This document shows, one piece after another, positions 36,973-61,197 of a stretch of 64,000 nucleotides of DNA. Position numbers and translations under genes: made by a program. The notes beneath the pieces were generated by a model, which worked only from the letters and a program-made list of their open reading frames with translations, was not told the DNA's origin and searched no databases. The first letter of the stretch is position 1. Every line of letters starts with the position of its first letter. Source of the stretch: an uncultured virus (IMG/VR IMGVR_UViG_3300042276_000826) (Duplodnaviria > Heunggongvirae > Uroviricota > Caudoviricetes); IMG/VR virus record IMGVR_UViG_3300042276_000826; one strand, 5' to 3'.

Positions 36973-38193
36973 TTAAATTTTTTGTGCCGCAATTATTGAC
37001 TCAAAACGCCCCTCTTTGCAAACCTTAGTTGTTTGGGTGTAATACTTTTTTGCATTAGCTGTAGATACTTCAAATAATTGCAAATATCCTTTTTCGTAAA
37101 ACTCTGCTAATTTAAAAGTAGCATAGCAATCATCAAAATAAGCTGCACTTAAAAGCAATTTTTTCAATGATGTTTTGTACTGATCTAAGTTTTCATATCC
37201 TAAAGTTTTTTCAAGATTTTTAAGTAAATAATCATCAACTCTTTTATCTTTATAATTAATCTCCCCCAACATAAGCTTTAATGCTTCACCTAAAGCTCTC
37301 TCATCCTTATCTTCATATACTGCTTTTTGCAAAAAGAAAAGTGCCTTTTGTAAATCAGGATTTTTTATCTCTATGGTGTGCGTTCCATCATCAATCTCAT
37401 CTACACCAAACTTCTCTTTCATAATTTCCGCATTCTTGCAAAAATCATACGGACAATTCGGTAAAGTCTTTACTGTAACGCTTGCACCTCTTTCTCCTTT
37501 ATAATAAGCCATACCAATTTCATAGTGGTCTATTTTTTCTACCTCTTTTGCAAAAGAAGTATTGCTTAAAGACACCAATAAGGCGACAACTAAAAAAGAG
37601 TTAAATTTTAGCATATTAGAAATCCTTGATGATTTATTTTTATTCTCTCTATAGACAACCATAAATATATGTCCTACAATTAATACACCATACGCATACG
37701 ATGTATATAAATGAATAGCTCTGCAAATATCTTGAATATTCATAGGAATATCAATAAAGGCTCTTATGTATAAAGGAATGCCTGTTGCAAACATAATTGT
37801 TAGCATAAAAGCATTAAAAGCTATCATTTTTTTAGAAAAAGAAGAGATTGTTTTAATGTTCCTCTTTAGTAAGCCAATCAAAGAAACAATCATAAGGCCA
37901 AACAAAACACATCCGCCATAAAAATGCCATACCCAACCCTCTCGCCTCTCAATTCTTGCAATAAATAACTGGTCCGCACTGCCAACATCGTAAATATCCA
38001 AAATAGGAAACGAAAACTTAAAACTCTCCATGATAGCCTCTTTAGAGTAAAAGGTTGTATTCATAATCGCTGTACCTGCAACCAATAAAAAAACTAAGAA
38101 CATGGCCCAATGTAAAATCTTATAACTACTATTCAATTTCAACTCCTTGCATAAAATAGGTATTAATATAGGGGCATCCATAAGGTAAGTCAA
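36973..38193 (-). CDS. cytochrome b-like four-TM domain fused to Sel1-like repeats
   Basis: ILHW, WHFYGG, AIHLY, GHI (four TM His); C-terminal IGMAYYKG and LAEFYEKG...AKKYY. Confidence 0.6.
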   Translation of the reverse strand: MTYLMDAPILIPILCKELKLNSSYKILHWAMFLVFLLVAGTAIMNTTFYSKEAIMESFKFSFPILDIYDVGSADQLFIARIERREGWVWHFYGGCVLFGLMIVSLIGLLKRNIKTISSFSKKMIAFNAFMLTIMFATGIPLYIRAFIDIPMNIQDICRAIHLYTSYAYGVLIVGHIFMVVYRENKNKSSRISNMLKFNSFLVVALLVSLSNTSFAKEVEKIDHYEIGMAYYKGERGASVTVKTLPNCPYDFCKNAEIMKEKFGVDEIDDGTHTIEIKNPDLQKALFFLQKAVYEDKDERALGEALKLMLGEINYKDKRVDDYLLKNLEKTLGYENLDQYKTSLKKLLLSAAYFDDCYATFKLAEFYEKGYLQLFEVSTANAKKYYTQTTKVCKEGRFESIIAAQKI

Positions 38194-38992
38194 TACTTAC
38201 AATGCCTTTGCTGTTTTCAATAATAACTTTAAAAACGGCATTTTCCTGAATCTCTTTGTCAATCTCTTGTGTATTGTTTTCACCATCAAAAACAAAATCG
38301 TTTATCTCTGTAAAAATATGTTTTTTTGTAATAGGCTTAGAATTAAAGCTTTTAAAAATTACTTGCTGAGGTTCTGTATCTTGAATATCAACTTTTGAAA
38401 CGGCCATCAGTTCATTGTGTTTATTATAAAGCGAAATTAAGTGTCGCCCTTTTTCATGAGTAATAAAACCATTAAAAACAGTTGCATTTTCCCAAAGACG
38501 ATAATAATTACTTGCAAAGCCGTCTTCTTCTGCCAAATACCAAGTCGGGTATTTGCTTACATCATTGTTTTCTGGAATAATTGAAGGAAAAAGTGTATGC
38601 TCATTAATAAAGAGTCGTGTGCTTTTGTAGTGTGTTCTGTATGTAAGTTTTTTTGTAGGGTTTACATCTTCTCTTTCATTGGCCGTACTGATACAAGTAA
38701 TGCCGTCTTTTTCAATTTCAATATCTTTTTTAAGCTTTACATAACCTGGAATATGTACCGAAGAGACAATGTGCGACCCAAAACGAAAACGCTTGCTCAT
38801 GTTGTGCATTTGATAGCACACAATGCTTTTAAAATCATCACTGTTGTAATATCTCTTAAAAACAATTATGTCATCGTCAAGTTCACCATTCATTTTTAAA
38901 TTAAAATATTTTTTTGCCTTTGCAAAAAGTGGGGTTAAAAATAAAAACGAACCCGTAGCAGCTATAGCTTTTATAAAATTACGTCTTCCCAT
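38129..38992 (-). CDS. Tat-exported hypothetical protein
   Basis: N-terminal MGRRNFIKAIAA twin-arginine signal. Confidence 0.65.
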   Translation of the reverse strand: MGRRNFIKAIAATGSFLFLTPLFAKAKKYFNLKMNGELDDDIIVFKRYYNSDDFKSIVCYQMHNMSKRFRFGSHIVSSVHIPGYVKLKKDIEIEKDGITCISTANEREDVNPTKKLTYRTHYKSTRLFINEHTLFPSIIPENNDVSKYPTWYLAEEDGFASNYYRLWENATVFNGFITHEKGRHLISLYNKHNELMAVSKVDIQDTEPQQVIFKSFNSKPITKKHIFTEINDFVFDGENNTQEIDKEIQENAVFKVIIENSKGIVSIDLPYGCPYINTYFMQGVEIE

Positions 38993-39791
38993 TAAATTTC
39001 CTTGTTTTAGTATTTTTAGTATCGTTAATGTAAATTATTTCAAAATCATCAAGCTCCGCAAGTTCTTCTTTAAAGAAATCTTGTATTTTTTTAGAAAAAT
39101 ACATTTTTACAAACAAAGTGACACGCTTTCTTTTTAAATCAATAATACACTTGTTGTAACCATAGCTTTTTCCAAGCTCTTTGAGTTTATTAAAAATTGA
39201 GTTGATTTTATGCCTAACCACTTGCTCATGTACACGTATGGCTTTTACTTCAAAACGTCCATTTTTTTGCTTAATTTTTTCTCTTTTTGGGATATAAAAT
39301 AAAAATCCCTCGCTGTCATATTTAAATAGCTCTTCTTTGAATTCATTTGAAAAAAAGTTATTAGGCTTAATCTCAACTTGTGCAAAGAAGTTATTTATTT
39401 TTTTATTATTTTTGTTATAAAACTCAAACTCTACTTTATTGTCTTTTGTAATCTTCACGGGGTGTCCAAAGAGAATGTTTTTATTAGCTTTTAAGATTCC
39501 TAAAAAAAATGTTTTAATTTTATTAAGTGAGAATTGCATCAGTTGCTCATTCAATAATCTCTTAAAAAGCTTGTGTTTCTCATTGGACATAATATAATAC
39601 TCTGTTTTGTAATATCCTTGCTTGTCACTTAAACCTATAAAATATCCTGTTTGAGACAAAGAGACATCAAGAAAGCCATACGTTTTAGAAACAGCTTTTT
39701 TAATAATTTCCCTCACCTCGAAATCTTCAAGATTATAGTGTTTGCAAAGCTCTTCAATTTCATTGTTTATATTATCTTTTCCAAGCAACAT
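38979..39791 (-). CDS. hypothetical protein, weakly NusA-N-like
   Basis: 270 aa; IEELCKHYNLEDFEVREIIKKAV resembles the NusA N-terminus. Confidence 0.5.
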   Translation of the reverse strand: MLLGKDNINNEIEELCKHYNLEDFEVREIIKKAVSKTYGFLDVSLSQTGYFIGLSDKQGYYKTEYYIMSNEKHKLFKRLLNEQLMQFSLNKIKTFFLGILKANKNILFGHPVKITKDNKVEFEFYNKNNKKINNFFAQVEIKPNNFFSNEFKEELFKYDSEGFLFYIPKREKIKQKNGRFEVKAIRVHEQVVRHKINSIFNKLKELGKSYGYNKCIIDLKRKRVTLFVKMYFSKKIQDFFKEELAELDDFEIIYINDTKNTKTRKFNGKT

Positions 39792-40219
39792 TATTCACCA
39801 ATCAAAGTTTATTAAATTATAGTAACTTATTAATAAAAGATAAATTAATTTTATTAAATCATTAAAATTTTATTATTTTGAAGCCCACCAGTAAACGAAA
39901 TTGCTTGAAATTTTGGTTATATAAAGAAGAGATATGGTGGGCTATATAGAATTATAACAAAGAAAATCCAAAAAAACTTAATTTTTTAATAAAATTTAAT
40001 TAATTAATAAAAAAACTTTTTTATTTATAGATTTTTAAGTTTCCATAGATTAAAATTATGAATATTTTTTTTAATTTTATTGTATTTTACAATAATGAAC
40101 GCATTTTTCTTCTTCTTGCTTTATAGAAGTTAAACAGCGTGTCCTAATAAGGACAAAGCGATAATCAATAGGCACTCTTGCAAGAGAGTAATATCGCTAG
40201 GTGTAAAACCTAAAATAGC

Positions 40220-41445
40220 CTTGAAACGGTGAAATTTGCCGTTTTCAAATTCCTTAAATTGACGGGGAGTACCTAAAGTTTTTTGGTACTAAGCATGTAT
40301 AGTGATATATATGTGGCGATGGGTAATTCCATTGATTGTATAAAAATTTGTGACCATAGCACAAATAAAGATGCAATCTTAATCGGTACAGTAACAAGCC
40401 AAAAAAATAGATAAGAGCAGCAGCTCTTTGATAAATGGGCAATCCGCAGCCAAGACACTTAAAGAGTGTAAGGTTCAGAGACTAGGAATAGCTTACGCAC
40501 ATCTATAAAAGCGTAAGTCAAGTAGGCAATAAGCAACTTCTTAATCGACTCCAATTTTCTTTTTTATTTTACAAATAAAGAATGACAATATAGGAGATCA
40601 AAATGTCAAACAATCAAACACTAAGAATAGATATACAAGCAATTCAAAAACTAAAGTTTTTTGAAACACTGGATAAAACAACACAAAACAGTTTAACTTT
40701 TATGTTAAGAAACCCAAGCCACACAAGAGTAATTTACATGGAAGACCCAGAGGGTATTTCAGATAGATTGTTTTCAAGTGTTGCTAGAATTGATGCAACT
40801 AAAGGGTTTTTAAACAATGCACTCAATGGTATTATTAAGCCAACAGATCCACAAAAGTTTTTTACAAAATATCCCGAATACGGTATTGCATTTCAAGAGT
40901 TAATTGATGCAATTAAAAAAGTTGAAAACATGGGATATGACTTAGCAAGTACACTGCCTGTTTCATCATTAAGAAACAAAGCAATTAAAAGAGAAATCAC
41001 AAAAAGAAAGCCAAAACAAGAGGCTGCACCAAAAGCAAAGGCTGAGGTGAAAACACCAAAAGAAAAAGAAACGCCAAAAAGTGATAAAAAGGTTGAAACA
41101 GCACCAAAAGCTGAAACAAAAGATGCAAAAGTTGAAGCAGCACCAAAAGCTACTGCAACACCAAAAGCATCAGAAGTTAAGAAAACCGAAACAGCAGCAA
41201 CAAAAGCTTCAACAACAGCATCAGAAGTTAAAACAGAAGTAAAAGCTGCAACCTCAACTGAAAAGAAATAAAAAGTTTGATTAAGAAGTAATGATTGTCG
41301 AAAAAGGGAACATAGAAGATATAGTCCGTCCGTGTATGACTTAAGATAAGTTTGGTTTAGCTTTGTCATGCACCCTGCTTTAGAAATAAAGCTTGTCATA
41401 CGAAAGGTATGAGCAGTTGCCTGTATTACACGGGTAAACGGGTAG
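40220..41445 (+). ncRNA. group I intron-like ribozyme (IC1-like P4-P6 with P5abc) with internal ORF; boundaries approximate
   Basis: P AAATTGACGGGGA 40256-40268; Q AATCCGCAGCCAAG 40441-40454; R GTTCAGAGACTA 40473-40484; S AAGATATAGTCC 41316-41327; A-rich bulge GGTACAGTAACAAG 40385-40398; P9 hairpins downstream of S. Confidence 0.85.
40603..41271 (+). CDS. ribozyme-embedded protein with Ala/Lys/Thr/Glu/Pro-rich (histone-like) tail
   Basis: 222 aa, strong RBS; no LAGLIDADG/GIY-YIG/HNH motif; lies between the R and S elements. Confidence 0.8.
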   Translation: MSNNQTLRIDIQAIQKLKFFETLDKTTQNSLTFMLRNPSHTRVIYMEDPEGISDRLFSSVARIDATKGFLNNALNGIIKPTDPQKFFTKYPEYGIAFQELIDAIKKVENMGYDLASTLPVSSLRNKAIKREITKRKPKQEAAPKAKAEVKTPKEKETPKSDKKVETAPKAETKDAKVEAAPKATATPKASEVKKTETAATKASTTASEVKTEVKAATSTEKK

Positions 41446-41808
41446 TGTATTGCGAACACTATTGAACACAAGAGTTATTTAATAAACCATAAAAAATATA
41501 CCGTACTAGACGGTGACAAGTGAATAATGATAAAAGAGTACCGTAAGGGAAAAACATTACAATCAAGTTATCTAGTAGCCAAAGAGGCTCTATTTTTTAC
41601 AAAGCCTCTTGAGGCTACTTCTGTCTAGTGCAGAGTTTTTGTAAAGAATACACCTCTAATGGCGTTCATCCGAATCTCACAAAATAAATTTAACAGAGAT
41701 AGTAAATTAGTTGGTAACAGCTATGATGATGCGTACACCTAACAGTGCAAACTGACGTTTTCTTTTTAATTAAAGAATAAATAGGAAACCCGTTGGAGGC
41801 GGAAAAAA

Positions 41809-42003
41809 ATGGAAAATATTAAAAATGAAAGACTTGAGAGAATCAAGTCGCATTTGAGCAAATTTGTTTGCTCAAAAATCTTAGCTAAGGCTAAGATACA
41901 AAAAATAAAGGGAAGCAAACAAACGCTTCCACACTACTTGATAGAGTGGTGGGATGACGAGGAAGGCTATCAAAGCCTTTCTATCCCCCTTAAGTGGAGA
42001 TAA
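41809..42003 (+). CDS. small hypothetical protein
   Basis: 64 aa, GGAGG RBS, followed by hairpin aagagga/tcctctt plus T-run. Confidence 0.5.
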   Translation: MENIKNERLERIKSHLSKFVCSKILAKAKIQKIKGSKQTLPHYLIEWWDDEEGYQSLSIPLKWR

Positions 42004-42253
42004 GAAGAAGAGGATTAATTTCCTCTTTTATAACTGTTCAAAGCCAATATTTGCTTTATGATACTTATTGGCTTTGCCAATATTCCTATCATTTCCTTAT
42101 ATGGTTTTGAAGAGTTATATACTCTTTTTAGACTTCATGATTAATTTCATGAATTTGTGGGTACTTAAACAGTAATGTTTGCTGTCACACAAAGTCGAAT
42201 TGCAAAATGAGTTATATGGCAATTCATTATATGAAATCATAGAGGAGAGAACT

Positions 42254-42796
42254 ATGTATAGTAAAACGATAATGGTAGGAAATTTAACCAGAGATATAGA
42301 ACTAAGATATTTGCCAAGTGGTGCAGCGATTGCTAAAAGTGCGATTGCAGCTTCTTATAAATATAAGACACAAACAGGTGAACAAAAAGAGGAAGTCTGT
42401 TTTTTAGACTTTAATATCTTTGGACGAAGTGCTGAGGTTGCTAACCAATATTTAAAAAAGGGTTCTAAAGTCTTATTAGAAGGGCGACTTGTGTTAGAGC
42501 AATGGACAGCTCAAGATGGAACAAACAGAAGTAAACACTCACTAAGAGTAGATACTATGAAGATGCTAGATAGCAAATCAGATGCACAACAAAATAGTGG
42601 AAATTCGTATGAGAACCACAATGCGTATGCACAACAAAGTGATGCTTCACCTTCATATAATCAAAACCCTGTTCAACATCAAGCAGCTGCTTCAAGTGCC
42701 TATGCAAACTCCAATGTTGGTGGTGCGAGTAATCAAAGAAAAGAGGATTATTCAATACCTGAAATTGATATTGATGAAGACGAAATACCATTCTAA
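42254..42796 (+). CDS. ssb: single-stranded DNA-binding protein
   Basis: MVGNLTRDIELRY...YLKKGSKVLLEGRL; acidic tail DEDEIPF; start at 42254 with RBS. Confidence 0.97.
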   Translation: MYSKTIMVGNLTRDIELRYLPSGAAIAKSAIAASYKYKTQTGEQKEEVCFLDFNIFGRSAEVANQYLKKGSKVLLEGRLVLEQWTAQDGTNRSKHSLRVDTMKMLDSKSDAQQNSGNSYENHNAYAQQSDASPSYNQNPVQHQAAASSAYANSNVGGASNQRKEDYSIPEIDIDEDEIPF

Positions 42797-57551: not shown

Positions 57552-60500
57552 ATGAATGATTTAAACACAACAAATTTTACAGTTTCTTCGGTAGTAAGTT
57601 ATCCAAATAGAGATAATCGTTTCGGTAACAACAGTTATAGAGGAAACTGTACAGGCTTATTGATTAAAGATATGATTAATTTCTTTAAGCCAAAACTTTT
57701 TGTAGATGCTTGTGAGGGAAGCGGTACATCAAGAGATGTATGTAAAGCCTTGGGCATCAATTATGTAGGTTTAGACTTACGCTATGGCAATGACTTCACA
57801 AAGATGTCAATTGCAAAAGAGTTGCCACACTTAGCCGATTTGTGTTTTACACATCCTCCGTACCACGATATGATTAAATACAGTGGTCAACAGTGGAATA
57901 AAGGACAAGGTTTGGTTGAAGGTGACACATCACACTGCAAAAGTGTTGATGAATTTTTAGCGATGTCACAAGTAATGTTGTTAAATCAAAGAGAAGCCAC
58001 ACGAAATGGTGGAGTTTATGCTACTTGTGCGACTTGTTGAATAGTGAAAAGCTATTCTGCCAATAAGGTCATTAAATATATTGGCAAACTAATTTTTCGA
58101 TAAGTGGAATGATGGAGTAACGCCCTGAAACGCTTACACTGATACTACGGATAGCAAATTGTATCGCTAAATACGAAATGTTATAAGCCCGTTGAAGTCG
58201 GCTAAGAGCTACCCTAACACAAGAATTATCTTGATGAGGCAATGCGAACCAGAGGTGGTCGAGTAGTGATAGGTCGGGTGTCTATAAAATATCTATGATG
58301 AGAATGTGCATAAGCACTGACGAATTTCCGAATGTAAGGGTCTAAACATAAAATATACAGAAATGTATATACTACAAACTGTAGGGCATAAGTGGTAAAG
58401 TAAAAATGGGTTGTATGAAATACCATATAGTGTTAAAGGCACTATCAATATGCAGGCTCAAAGGAAACATCTAAGGATATATGCAAAGATAGAAAGATTG
58501 GAACAAGGAAAATTAGAGATATGGAGACTTAAGCGGTCTATGAAATATTAAGATATATAAATTCGCAAGATACTAAAATCTTTTAACTCTAATGAAAGCG
58601 AAGCCACTACCGTTATATTATACTGACTATATAATATTGAAAGAAATCTGTAATGGATTTGTTAGGAAAGGGCTTTAGTCAAAGTTTATTAAACAAATAA
58701 AACTAAATACAAATCAAAAGTTCGAGTAAGATTAAGAGAGAATTTCCTATAAGGAGTTCGATTTTGAATAATCAAAAGAATCTGAAAAGACAGAAATTAA
58801 GAAATAATGAATACTACCAAATGCAAGATATTCAAGATAGATTATATATGCAAAGTTCAAAAGGTACAAAATTCACTCATTTAATGGAAATCATTACAAG
58901 TGAAAACAATATCTTACTAGCATATAGAAATATTAAGAAAAACAGCGGTAGTAACACAAAAGGTGTAGATGGTAAAGACATTAGTCATTTGGCTAGTCTT
59001 GAACCTGAAACACTAATAAAATTAGTTCAAATCAAATTAAAAAACTACTTCCCTAACAAGGTGCGAAGAGTAGAAATACCAAAACCTGATGGGAAATTAA
59101 GACCATTGGGGATACCGACAATTATGGATAGACTAATACAACAGTGTATATTACAAGTATTAGAACCTATTTGTGAAGCTAAGTTTTACAAACATAGCTA
59201 TGGTTTTCGCCCTTTAAGAAGTACAAAACACGCAATTAGTAGGGCTAATTTCCTAGCCCAAAAGAACAATCTACATTATGTTGTAGATGTTGATATAAAA
59301 GGCTTCTTTGATAATATAAATCACGGAAAACTTATTAAACAACTGTGGACTTTGGGAATAAGAGATAAAGCATTAATTACAGTAATTTCAAAAATGTTAA
59401 AAGCAGAAATCGAAAATGTGGAAATACCCGATAAAGGTACACCACAAGGTGGAATATTATCTCCGCTCTTAGCTAATGTTGTTCTAAATGAATTCGACTG
59501 GTGGATTAACTCTCAATGGGAAAGTATTCCAACCAAAAAACAATACGCTAGTTATTCAAAAGACCCAAATGGGAAAAAATATCGAGCACTAAAAACAACA
59601 AATCTAAAAGAAGTATATATCGTAAGATACGCAGACGATTTTAAACTCTTTTGCAGAAATCACCAAGATGCAGTTAAACTCTTTGAAGCCTCTAAACAGT
59701 GGTTAAGAAATAGATTACATCTTGAAGTAAGCAAAGAAAAATCAAAAATTGTAAACTTACGAAAAAACTACTCTTACTTTCTAGGTATAAAATTTAAAGT
59801 ACACAAAAAAGGTAAGAAGAAAGATAAAAACACTAAGTGGGTGGTAAAATCCCACATTCAAGAAAAAGCTTTGAACAAAATGAAAGAAAATATTAGAAAA
59901 CATATCAAAAATATACAAAAATCAAAGGTAAATTTAAATCTATCAATAGATTTATATAACTCCTTTGTAATAGGAATACACAACTATTATAGTTGTGCTA
60001 CGAATTGTAATTTAGATATGGCAAAACTTTCTAATCAAACACGAACTAAAATCTTTGTAAGACTAAAAAGCAGAAGAATAAATAAATCAGATAAATTACC
60101 TGACTACATTAAAAAAGTATATGGTAGAAGTGAAATGTTAAGAATGTTAGGTGAAAAAGCAATTTTGCCACTTTCATATATTCAACACTCAAAGCTAATG
60201 AACTTTAGCCAAACCAATATCTATAATCCAATAGATAGAGAGAAAATTTACAACTCTCAAAAAGTTGCGGATAACAAGATAATCAGATATTTAATTGAAA
60301 ATCCTATTCAAGGACAATCAACTGAATATAATGACAATCGTATATCTCTATATATAGGACAATTAGGTAAATGTGCAGTAACTAAAGAAGAATTAGAAAT
60401 TGGAAATATGGAATGTCATCACATTCATCCAAGAAGCAAAGGTGGGCTAGATAGTTACAAAAATTTAGTATTAATTACTAAAGAAGTACATAAACTAATA

Positions 60501-61197
60501 CACTCAACACAATTGGAAACAATTAGCAAATATCTGAAATATATACCTACTGATAAAATTACCCTTGAAAAGCTAAATAAATTTAGAACTAAAGCTGGTA
60601 ATCTTGAAATTTGTCTATAAAGATTTAATTGATTAAGTATTTAAGTATAAAGTTAAATAAACTTTGATGGAACGCCGTGTGCGGTGAAAGTCGCACGCAC
60701 GGTGTGAAGCGGGGGAAAAGTTGGAGATAACATCAAATTCTTACCTATCGCTATTGATTGGCGACCAAAAAGTTGCAGGTGTGTGCAGCTCATATCAAGC
60801 GGATTTTATTAAAATGATGCCTAAAAATGAGCTTTTGAATGTTGTAATTAAAATGCAATATAACACACACAGTGCAAACATTCAATACTCAAATAGAAAT
60901 TTTATTCCTATTAGCCATGAGTATTTGATTCTTTGGAAAAAGAAAGCAGCTTCTATTTATCAAGTGGCTTTCAGTATTGCCAAAGAAGGACAAAAACAGA
61001 TTGCTAATACATGGCGAGCTGTTATAAGAATTGTGATGATGCAGTTTAATGGTTCAGTTTCATTAAATACAATTTATGATGAGGTTGAAAAAGTTGCATC
61101 TCACTTGATTGCAAAAAATGCAAACTACAAAGCAAAAATCAGACAAGTCTTGCAAAAACACCATACAAGTGTTGCAAGAGGCGTTTGGGCTGCGTAA
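57552..61197 (+). CDS. amino-DNA methyltransferase with C-terminal winged helix, split by a group II intron (exons 57552-58026 and 60755-61197; 305 aa spliced)
   Basis: DACEGSGT and THPPY in exon 1; junction restores GVYAT-L-IGDQK in frame; HEYL in exon 2. Confidence 0.88.
58027..60754 (+). mobile_element. group II intron
   Basis: 5' GTGCG at 58027; domain V GAACGCCGTGTGCGGTGAAAGTCGCACGCACGGTG ~60670-60705; domain VI ending CCTATCGCTAT at 60754. Confidence 0.95.
58764..60620 (+). CDS. ltrA: group II intron RT/maturase/HNH endonuclease
   Basis: RPLGIPTIMDR, GTPQGGILSPLL, RYADDF, C-terminal CHHIHP...GG...YKNL..HKLIH. Confidence 0.95.
   Translation: MNNQKNLKRQKLRNNEYYQMQDIQDRLYMQSSKGTKFTHLMEIITSENNILLAYRNIKKNSGSNTKGVDGKDISHLASLEPETLIKLVQIKLKNYFPNKVRRVEIPKPDGKLRPLGIPTIMDRLIQQCILQVLEPICEAKFYKHSYGFRPLRSTKHAISRANFLAQKNNLHYVVDVDIKGFFDNINHGKLIKQLWTLGIRDKALITVISKMLKAEIENVEIPDKGTPQGGILSPLLANVVLNEFDWWINSQWESIPTKKQYASYSKDPNGKKYRALKTTNLKEVYIVRYADDFKLFCRNHQDAVKLFEASKQWLRNRLHLEVSKEKSKIVNLRKNYSYFLGIKFKVHKKGKKKDKNTKWVVKSHIQEKALNKMKENIRKHIKNIQKSKVNLNLSIDLYNSFVIGIHNYYSCATNCNLDMAKLSNQTRTKIFVRLKSRRINKSDKLPDYIKKVYGRSEMLRMLGEKAILPLSYIQHSKLMNFSQTNIYNPIDREKIYNSQKVADNKIIRYLIENPIQGQSTEYNDNRISLYIGQLGKCAVTKEELEIGNMECHHIHPRSKGGLDSYKNLVLITKEVHKLIHSTQLETISKYLKYIPTDKITLEKLNKFRTKAGNLEICL

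Follow-up and report, generated by a model that had tools for sequence, protein, structure and literature searches.

An orphan three-way-junction RNA beside a group I intron in an uncultured phage

Positions 41503-41631 (+ strand) of the window, that is, of the whole stretch of 64,000 nucleotides that was analyzed, form a genuine, compact three-way-junction RNA that belongs to no described family and is an orphan. Its fold is exceptional for the contig. The junction is more likely to serve the small gene that follows it than to pair, as half of an exon, with the 5' flank of the neighboring group I intron, or to be a domain of the ribozyme. With regard to function, we infer, tentatively, that a small cassette with an accessory gene carries the junction as its leader or as an ncRNA module in its own right. 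The domain consists of the following parts:

41503-41631, + strand: three-way-junction RNA domain of 129 nt (MFE structure)
41503-41511 / 41623-41631, + strand: H1 of the junction, GTACTAGAC pairing with GTCTAGTGC, 9 bp with one G.U
41512-17/41567-72, 41521-23/41563-65 and 41525-29/41555-59, + strand: H2 arm of the junction (MFE structure)
41537-41551, + strand: tip of the H2 arm, S-turn (bulged-G) signature AGUA/GAA around a 2-bp helix, capped by a GUAA (GNRA) tetraloop
41574-41580 / 41613-41619, + strand: outer helix of the H3 arm, AGTAGCC with GGCTACT (read in the sequence)
41582-41589 / 41603-41610, + strand: inner helix of the H3 arm, AAGAGGCT with AGCCTCTT (read in the sequence)

The H3 arm is a 15-bp helix. 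The junction as a whole has an MFE of -39.8 kcal/mol (z -4.55), and none of 1000 dinucleotide shuffles was equally stable; this z-score lies beyond those of all 255 background windows of 129 nt from the same contig, the lowest of which was -3.43. The full 318-nt stretch 41443-41760 reaches z -2.73, which is not beyond chance. The original prediction had placed nested helices at 41503/41623, an AGTAGCC/GGCTACT helix with another enclosed in it, and an AGTA-CC-GTAA-GG-GAA motif of the loop-E/bulged-G type with a GNRA cap, and all of these are present at the positions given for them. The surrounding ~320 nt, described there as ORF-free, turned out to be ORF-poor instead. The only + strand ORFs inside 41443-41760 encode 33 aa (41527-41628, with no clear ribosome-binding site on reading of the sequence) and 27 aa (41659-41742); on the - strand, the stretch contains an ORF of 35 aa (41459-41566), and ORFs of 29 and 192 aa overlap its start up to 41471.

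At the tip of H2, AGUA lies opposite GAA, beside a Watson-Crick helix, as in bulged-G motifs. The combined S-turn and GNRA signature matches once in the 64 kb, both strands included, against 0.045 matches expected, and at least one match was found in 4% of 200 shuffles. S-turn motifs are known protein-binding modules, and this hairpin would be the likeliest site of a protein or tertiary contact.

The junction is followed on the same strand by a tail, a small ORF and a terminator-like hairpin, which together delimit a block:

41632-41795, + strand: linker or tail up to the ribosome-binding site, with no better-than-chance fold overall
41653-41662, + strand: anti-SD-like CCUCUAAUGG in the tail
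41708-41723 and 41743-41754, + strand: GNRA-capped hairpins of the tail (the former with z -2.43)
41809-42003, + strand: orphan ORF of 64 aa, preceded by a GGAGG ribosome-binding site (41795-41799)
42006-42029, + strand: intrinsic-terminator-like hairpin of 9 bp followed by UUUUAU (MFE -11.4, z -3.83, 0/200 shuffles equally stable)
41493-42031, no strand assigned: 539-nt block of junction, tail, small ORF and terminator, absent as a unit from one related contig (X14)

The arrangement is that of a leader: the junction ends at 41631, 165 nt ahead of the SD sequence (41795-99), and both precede the ORF. The sequence in between has a chance-level fold (z +0.35 for 41624-41770, which begins within H1), and a candidate terminator between junction and ORF, at 41731-41768, was rejected (hairpin of -4.8 kcal/mol, z -0.14). 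Given a strong terminator after the small ORF and no convincing one before it, the junction and the ORF probably share a transcript. The ORF may not be a real gene: Pfam and PHROG offer no family for it, and a search of 5.8 billion clustered proteins found only the ORF itself.

Comparison with related contigs suggests that these parts travel together. In a contig of run X14, position 42032 follows 41492 after just 3 other letters, with at least 143 letters on each side; the joint is seen in this one contig, at depth 4.9. This contig keeps the 3' part of the intron (41316-41492) and lacks the junction, the tail, the 64-aa ORF and the terminator, so that the domain appears to be dispensable and to travel with the ORF and the terminator. 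As judged from these contigs, related phages either have or lack the block 41493-42031 as a whole. Where it is present, the comparison with a second relative, X16 (~95% identical), indicates that the junction is nearly invariant. Its 129 nt contain a single substitution, T41544C, at the N of the GNRA loop of the S-turn hairpin, where X16 has GCAA and GNRA is retained. The 129 nt that follow contain two: C41748A, at the N of another GNRA loop and again retaining GNRA, and T41758C, which would turn a possible G.U pair into G-C. The variation thus comprises 3 informative changes in one contig. In the same relative, the comparison region 41299-41442 shows 7 substitutions and 15 inserted letters, and a diverged stretch of the same length replaces the small ORF. 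Two further matches were set aside as most likely chance or unrelated, namely an apparent joint 39982->41047 in X13 (side 24) and a 32-nt high-depth match at 41441-41472 in X16.

These observations are consistent with the following scheme. The 539-nt accessory block, located between an SSB gene and the group I intron in the leader of a rightward early operon, would be transcribed rightward from an upstream promoter, through the intron; the junction would be the structured front of the untranslated RNA that precedes the 64-aa ORF and the terminator, and would act in cis on the small ORF. A scan for sigma-70-like consensus promoters found none on the + strand in 39823-41298 and none at the left end of the block. 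Access to GGAGG may be controlled via a relay of SD-like and anti-SD-like segments, with AAGAGGCU (41582-89), AGCCUCUU (41603-10), 41632-50, CCUCU (41653-57) and GGAGG (41795-99) as its proposed members. The segment 41632-41650 is able to pair with 41591-41609, and pairing of 41590-41611 with 41630-41652 (-16.6 kcal/mol) would compete with H3, but in equilibrium folds this competing hairpin is much less stable than the junction. In the MFE fold, a 10-bp helix (41653-62/41790-99) covers the SD region. The best SD/anti-SD duplex (-17.7 kcal/mol, compared with -13.8 +/- 2.3 for shuffles) was equaled in 6.4% of 1000 shuffles (p~0.06), and the duplex of the SD region with upstream segments is stronger than those of all 14 other genes tested. 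Alternatively, the junction may act as a stabilizing or processing structure on the 5' side of the mRNA.

Searches for families and homologues left the junction isolated. At gathering thresholds, the only matches of Rfam 15 in the whole window were to two models of group II introns, at 58-61 kb; the set included GOLLD, ROOL, HEARO, OLE, riboswitches and self-cleaving ribozymes. With E up to 10, the best score in 41480-41810 was 17.7 bits against thresholds of at least 50, and a search of 39500-42500 gave the same result; the 5' flank (39860-40235) had no match, and no aptamer family was detected there or in 41480-41810. Of the claim of an unrecognized structured RNA, the part that stood is accordingly a structured candidate 3' of the ribozyme without an Rfam family, and the part that did not is its pairing to the 5' flank (see below). 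Pattern searches were equally negative, with the 21-mer of the S-turn hairpin in viral contigs, with a two-part pattern of this hairpin and AGTAGCC in metagenome, genome and viral contigs, and with the stem of the 5' flank in viral and genome contigs. Against phages and plasmids, blastn of 40000-41800 returned only a 49-nt match in the intron core, and against phages, with E up to 1, 41443-41800 returned only matches of ~30 nt (E 0.3). Nine loci around SSB relatives showed neither similarity nor an intron. Among 69 loci with related introns (58 viral and 11 metagenomic), blastn found matches to the core and P4-P5 only, and the junction domain in none; a covariance model of the junction (R1), run on 79 loci and the window, retrieved only the junction itself, the next best score being 19.6 bits (E 0.11). 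The 222-aa ORF, a 270-aa ORF and the exonuclease, used as protein anchors, yielded no relatives in viral contigs. In the collections searched, no junction homologues were found outside near-identical wastewater contigs, hence no covariation.

The neighboring intron and the flanks on its two sides bear directly on the alternatives. The relevant features are:

~40203-41442, + strand: group I intron, IA2-like, with approximate boundaries and predicted splice sites
40221-48, 40250-55/41305-10 and 40260-66/40443-48, + strand: P2, P3 and P4 of the intron
40478-84/41322-27, 40492-98/40511-17 and 40537-46/41279-88, + strand: P7, P7.1 and P7.2, the ORF lying inside P7.2
41316-27, + strand: J8/7-P7', with the S box AAGATATAGTCC
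41332-40/41365-73 and 41377-92, + strand: P9 and P9.1, followed by hairpins at 41396-41412 and 41420-34
40603-41271, + strand: 222-aa orphan ORF within the intron, with a ~130-aa N-terminal part and a repetitive tail rich in Lys/Ala/Pro/Thr/Glu
41443-41461, + strand: 6-bp hairpin right after the putative 3' splice site (MFE -4.5, z -2.5), common to the X14 and X16 relatives
40140-40198, + strand: structured 5' flank, with a hairpin at 40140-40155 and a stem 40157-63/40192-98 that encloses a GCAA-capped hairpin (40174-40189)
41662-41669, + strand: GCGTTCAT, proposed closing helix, exact complement of ATGAACGC at 40095-40102

The intron contains the core elements P4 (P/Q), P7 (R/S) and J8/7. A partial match to Rfam RF00028 at 40257-40486 reaches 25.7 bits (E 1e-4); with the model split by the ORF, this falls short of the gathering score of 50. 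The 3' part of the intron alone gave no Rfam alignment. Over 49 nt, the core is 89.8% identical to an intron region in the capsid gene of a Vibrio phage, and the X16 relative carries a compensatory change in P9.1 (G41377C plus C41392G). The P8 hairpin is absent, with 5 nt only between AGGGAA (41305-10) and J8/7. In X16, 13 extra letters between P3' and J8/7 complete a 7-bp P8 hairpin. A hairpin of -3.6 kcal/mol or better that ends within 3 nt of the box is found in 23 of 31 distinct related introns, compared with -2.1 in the window. The lack of P8 in this copy makes splicing doubtful in this genome, and the intron is evidently decaying, the P8 hairpin being polymorphic in the population. Three candidate 5' splice sites have a U.G pair in P1 (after T40179, T40202 and T40230); T40202 is favored as a candidate site, its ATAGCC aligning with the guide sequence of the Vibrio phage intron. 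Inspection for P10 by hand and enumeration of P1 gave several, equally weak solutions. At the other end, G41442 is the candidate omega-G, and GG 41440-41 could form a 2-bp P9.0 with CC 41330-31. For the 222-aa ORF, Pfam and PHROGs gave no family, protein clusters contained only the ORF itself, and the Atlas gave no usable match; it contains repeats D1 and D2, and the AlphaFold2 mean pLDDT is 37.6. Among the literature matches listed on group I introns of phages that lie in intergenic or non-coding RNA, none was pertinent.

Under one alternative, which we consider unlikely, the flanks (~40100-40202 and 41443-~41770) are two exons of a single novel phage ncRNA of ~350-450 nt that is spliced and hosts the intron. 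A group I intron must reside in something transcribed, and neither flank has plausible protein-coding exons, all three frames being broken on both sides; ARAGORN found no tRNA or tmRNA that could be the host. The 5' flank, like the junction, folds beyond chance (40136-40200: MFE -18.8, z -3.79, 0/200 shuffles equally stable), and the locus is richer in GNRA-capped hairpins of 4 bp or more, with 6 in 1.7 kb compared with 66 in the 64-kb window. The original prediction further held that the 8-nt complement 40095-102/41662-69 closes the whole ~1.6-kb unit. The exact complement exists, and the MFE fold of the join proposed there uses it, but closure by this helix is at chance level: four perfect 8-nt complements between the flanks were observed against 2.3 expected, and at least one occurs in 81% of 2000 shuffles. 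Folding the joined flanks added no significant pairing energy between them under any of three join models; when the 5' flank was shuffled 100 times, the gain was equaled in 8, 9 and 17 cases (p 0.08-0.17). Elsewhere in the window, the flanks recur only as AT-rich words of up to 22 nt. The proposal of a host ncRNA thus keeps the structure of both flanks, but is weakened by the X14 relative, which retains 41316-41492 without 41493-42031, and by the loss of P8, which makes ligation doubtful here while the junction is conserved. The search for intron-less homologues, in viral, genome and metagenome contigs, found none. A broader version, in which the flanks are either exons of a new phage ncRNA or the sensor of a ribozyme-coupled leader, with the S-turn junction as the functional head, seems quite unlikely; if true, the structured ncRNA in which a group I intron lives, and with which it is perhaps regulated, would be neither a tRNA nor an rRNA nor a tmRNA.

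The junction might instead be a stable trans-acting RNA cut from the early transcript, for example, a decoy or binding platform that engages a host or phage protein via the S-turn. A compact, exceptional fold closed by a 9-bp helix, a motif of a protein-binding type and conservation far better than that of the adjacent ORF in X16 would all fit. We nevertheless regard this possibility as distinctly unlikely, given that there is no sign of processing sites, of an own promoter or of a terminator right after the junction, and that no homologues show independent occurrence.

Another alternative is that the inverted repeats function as DNA or on the other strand: at the edge of the replication module, they might be an origin of replication, a palindrome bound by protein or an antisense hairpin. 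On the - strand, the fold is as good as on the + strand or better (-40.7 kcal/mol, z -6.11), H3 lengthening to 12+7 bp with the use of G.U pairs, so that the assignment to the + strand rests on motifs and context. The element also lies near a switch in strand and GC skew at ~40 kb and is adjoined by genes for SSB, RecT, exonuclease and primase. However, the S-turn/GNRA signature and three GNRA loops are meaningful on the + strand only, and both loop substitutions in X16 retain GNRA; H2, which together with H1 includes three G.U pairs in the MFE structure that would become A.C on the opposite strand, forms poorly there. Iterons and direct repeats are absent around the junction. To the right of the element, the window has no - strand gene, and the + strand holds every ORF of at least 130 aa between 40.6 and 64 kb. 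A DNA-level or - strand function is therefore improbable.

It is rather improbable that the structure is a product of chance or a relic that has no function as RNA and may overlap a gene for a tiny peptide of 33 or 27 aa. The sequence is an orphan in the collections searched, T41544C is also synonymous in the 33-codon frame 41527-41628, and the adjoining intron, having lost P8, is itself decaying. Yet the junction is the most extreme fold of 256 windows and carries a motif that is improbable by chance, whereas the 33-aa ORF has no clear ribosome-binding site and open frames of that length are estimated to be frequent in such AT-rich DNA. Finally, the peripheral domains of group I introns typically contain GNRA loops and three-way junctions, and candidate G|UUG 3' splice sites exist at 41710 and 41792, but an extra 3' domain of one large ribozyme, docking on the intron core with the true 3' splice site downstream of 41631, is highly improbable because the X14 relative lacks the domain although it keeps the 3' part of the intron to 41492, neither blastn nor the covariance model detects the domain in any of the 69 related-intron loci, and a P9.0 before G41442 would place the 3' splice site upstream of it.

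The preferred reading is that of a leader or ncRNA module of the accessory cassette. If the fold is real in vivo, it would represent a new class of structured RNA in a wastewater phage that is uncultured, AT-rich and at least 142 kb long, and the S-turn hairpin invites the search for a protein partner. Being small (129 nt) and well bounded, the junction is suited to probing or structure work, and the decaying intron beside it, which lies in untranslated RNA, provides a natural test of intron fate once precise splicing is unneeded. If the junction is only the leader of an orphan 64-aa gene, the reach of the finding would be local.

Several known systems offer points of comparison. The IA2-type phage group I introns include those of the T4 and Twort type, and the intron next to the junction shares with their architecture the P, Q, R and S core boxes, the order P7-P7.1-P7.2-P3'-(P8)-J8/7, an ORF in a peripheral loop and GNRA-capped P9.x hairpins; in contrast to them, it is inserted in non-coding RNA rather than in a protein, tRNA or rRNA gene, its ORF encodes no recognizable homing endonuclease, P8 is missing, and the junction lies outside the intron. 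The AGUA...GAA signature around a short GNRA-capped helix resembles the bulged-G (sarcin-ricin type) hairpins of large rRNA, a likeness that, for 41537-41551, is one of sequence signature; here, however, the motif belongs to a phage element of 129 nt, and the Rfam LSU models have no match in the region.

In Clostridium difficile, a c-di-GMP aptamer and a group I ribozyme are combined in a 5' UTR, the aptamer, which is of a known class, lying upstream of the ribozyme and the choice of splice site building or removing a ribosome-binding site (reviewed in PMC3984707). The phage locus likewise combines a group I ribozyme in an untranslated leader with a second structured domain and a downstream ribosome-binding site, but the extra domain is downstream here, no aptamer was detected in either flank, and P8 is missing. 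On reading of the sequence, no ribosome-binding site or start codon is created at the candidate exon junctions. Phage morons are comparable in another respect: here too, a block with a small orphan gene and its own terminator (42006-29) is present or absent between the same neighbors, as seen in one X14 contig, although an own promoter was not detected and structured untranslated RNA makes up more than half of the block.

The preferred reading has a parallel in the structured 5' leaders of bacterial and phage genes, which are riboswitch-like or serve as translational operators that bind a protein. Unlike these, the junction is without a family, homologues, covariation or ligand, the switch statistic is p~0.06, the SD lies 165 nt away and the 64-aa gene is an orphan. 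Like them, it is located upstream of a same-strand ORF in a terminator-bounded unit, its compact multi-helix fold precedes segments with alternative possible pairings, among themselves or to the SD, and it is better conserved, in the X16 relative, than the gene that follows it.

Reading of the sequence found every helix and motif named in the original prediction where it had been placed, and in the minimum-energy fold the helices combine into a single three-way junction. The features of this part of the window are as follows.

40203-41442 (approximate), + strand: group I intron, IA2-like
41503-41631, + strand: predicted three-way junction (H1, H2 arm, H3 arm)
41632-41795: tail, between the junction and GGAGG
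41582-89 and 41603-10 (forming H3), 41653-57: SD-like and anti-SD-like words in the leader
41795-99: true GGAGG
41809-42003, + strand: small orphan ORF, 64 aa
42179-42796, rightward: SSB gene
40724, 40894, 41469, 7246, 36639, 47644, + strand: copies of CAAGAGTWA

H1 of the junction comprises 9 bp and the H3 arm 7 + 8 bp, and the tip of the H2 arm reads AGUA-CC-GUAA-GG-GAA (41537-41551), an S-turn hairpin presumably similar to bulged-G hairpins in large rRNA. The structure is real, and statistics mark it as exceptional: its 129 nt have a minimum energy of -39.8 kcal/mol (z -4.55), a stability that 1000 dinucleotide shuffles never attain, and a z that no other 129-nt window of the contig matches (255 tested; minimum -3.43, mean -0.33). 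The S-turn and GNRA signature occurs once on both strands of the 64 kb, against 0.045 expected. The stretch 41624-41770, essentially the tail, is ordinary (z +0.35), and the full 318 nt (41443-41760) reach only z -2.73. This interval had been described as ORF-free but is rather ORF-poor: apart from the ends of two minus-strand ORFs, its ORFs are short (27-35 aa).

For the reverse complement of the junction, the fold has -40.7 kcal/mol (z -6.11), owed mainly to a longer H3, and fold stability does not settle the strand. Features in favour of the + strand are the S-turn and GNRA motifs, the three G.U pairs of H1 and H2, the orientation of the neighbouring genes, all +, and the substitutions in a relative (below). 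The junction is an orphan element, outside every described RNA family. Neither flank of the intron matched Rfam, and no homologue of either was detected among GenBank phages and plasmids, at 9 loci of SSB relatives or at 69 loci of related introns; nor did pattern searches for the junction and 5' flank in viral, metagenome and genome contigs, or a covariance model run over 437 kb, yield one.

The region lies in the 2.4-kb gap between two divergent gene blocks of an AT-rich (27-37% G+C), phage-like sequence, with genes oriented leftward as far as 39791 and rightward starting at 40603, the latter including those for a RecT-like protein, a RecE-like exonuclease and a primase. The DNA was found in wastewater metagenome runs, and the ORFs adjoining the junction region are present on contigs as long as 142 kb. 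The cumulative GC skew has its minimum at ~38000-40000, where gene orientation flips; this could reflect a replication origin or a mere change of transcription direction. The divergent promoter region contains a G+C-rich 8-bp stem, AGCCCACC / GGTGGGCT (39882-39944), with a ~47-nt loop; the fold of 39875-39950 has z -4.46 (0 of 300 shuffles equally stable), and the stem region had no match in Rfam. CAAGAGTWA, a pattern picked after the repeats had been seen, has six + strand copies where 1.6 are expected (a count attained by 2 of 100 shuffles), and three of them (40724, 40894, 41469) fall inside 750 nt, in and just 3' of the group I intron. A group II intron lies at 58084-60754, with Rfam matches for D1-D4 (58084-58288, 154.8 bits) and domain V-VI (60670-60754, 60.5 bits) and a 618-aa ORF (58764-60620) between them.

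Because an ORF splits the model, the group I match at 40257-40486 stays below the gathering score (25.7 bits, E 1e-4). The Q-R core shares 89.8% identity with a Vibrio phage intron region that has a capsid gene on one side and an HNH gene on the other. In our reading, which assumes an IA2 architecture, the helices follow in the order P2, P3, P4-P6, P7, P7.1, P7.2, P3', J8/7-P7', P9 and P9.1, followed by two further hairpins. When ATAGCC is aligned with the guide sequence of the Vibrio intron, a candidate 5' splice site after T40202 is favoured, other candidates lying after T40179 and T40230; at the candidate 3' splice site, G41442, the preceding GG can pair with CC 41330-31 as P9.0. Folding is also strong in the 5' flank and at the start of the intron (40136-40200, z -3.79; 40196-40250, z -3.83), and a GCAA-capped hairpin at 40174-40189 could be read as P1 with a U.G pair. 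The 222-aa ORF (40603-41271) lies in P7.2, ends in a Lys/Ala/Pro/Thr-rich repeat and has a predicted structure of low confidence. Neither Pfam nor PHROGs assigns it to a family, 5.8 billion clustered proteins contain no relative of it, and it is not recognisable as a homing endonuclease.

The comparison with relatives draws on contigs only. One, from metagenome run X16, is ~95% identical and spans 41248-41826. Of 31 distinct related introns, 23 carry a hairpin whose end lies at most 3 nt from the J8/7 box, where the window reaches only -2.1 kcal/mol. The window lacks 13 nt between P3' and J8/7 (41305-41316) that the X16 contig has; together with five letters of the window they form a 7-bp hairpin (arms GCAATGT / ACGTTGC), that is, P8. 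On these sequences, the population is polymorphic for the ribozyme core, and the window copy, without P8, may no longer be able to splice. In P9.1 of the X16 contig, G41377C and C41392G form a compensatory pair. Its single difference within the 129-nt junction, T41544C, turns GUAA into GCAA, and the two in the next 129 nt, C41748A and T41758C, change GCAA to GAAA and a possible G.U pair to G-C. Across 41826-42006, over the small ORF, it carries a stretch of the same length, diverged by >20%, flanked by upstream RNA and downstream DNA that are nearly identical to the window; the gene would either be evolving fast or represent an exchanged allele. The contig from run X14 (depth 4.9, ~89% identical) passes from 41316-41492 to 42032 with three other letters between, and therefore lacks the junction, tail, small ORF and terminator together.

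That terminator, a strong one (42006-42029, z -3.83), directly follows the small ORF; a hairpin followed by a T-run, located between junction and ORF, is unconvincing as a terminator, and a consensus scan detected no + strand promoter between 39823 and 41298. Junction and ORF would thus share one transcript that comes from further upstream and runs through the intron. A 10-bp helix in the fold of 41620-41812 pairs 41653-62 with 41790-99, and 41590-41611 could pair with 41630-41652 (-16.6 kcal/mol). The best upstream duplex of the SD region has -17.7 kcal/mol; shuffles give -13.8 +/- 2.3, with 6.4% of 1000 as good, and 14 other genes range from -7.5 to -16.4. These models suggest that the small ORF may be under folding-dependent control; a stabilising or protein-binding role of the junction is equally compatible. 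In the likeliest reading, held at somewhat less than an even chance, the junction would belong to a small accessory cassette, as its leader or as an ncRNA module.

Less likely, though compatible with the tests below, is that both flanks serve as exons in a single transcript, an ncRNA hosting the intron. Neither flank can encode protein exons. When they were concatenated under three splice models, shuffled 5' flanks, 100 per model, equalled the inter-flank energy gain in 17, 9 and 8 cases. The helix proposed to close a ~1.6 kb unit (40095-102 with 41662-69) is at chance level, with four complementary perfect 8-mers between 40040-40230 and 41443-41760 against 2.3 expected, and at least one in 81% of 2000 shuffles. 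Taken with the X14 joint and the absence of P8, these tests speak against both a unit closed by the flanks and an obligatory ribozyme domain.

Among known systems, the block made up of junction, tail, small ORF and terminator resembles a phage moron in its behaviour, although no own promoter could be detected. For pairing with a ribozyme, the closest system is the aptamer and group I ribozyme in a C. difficile 5' UTR, whose defining features, as described in a review (PMC3984707), are lacking here. The closest functional analogues of the junction are structured translational leaders.
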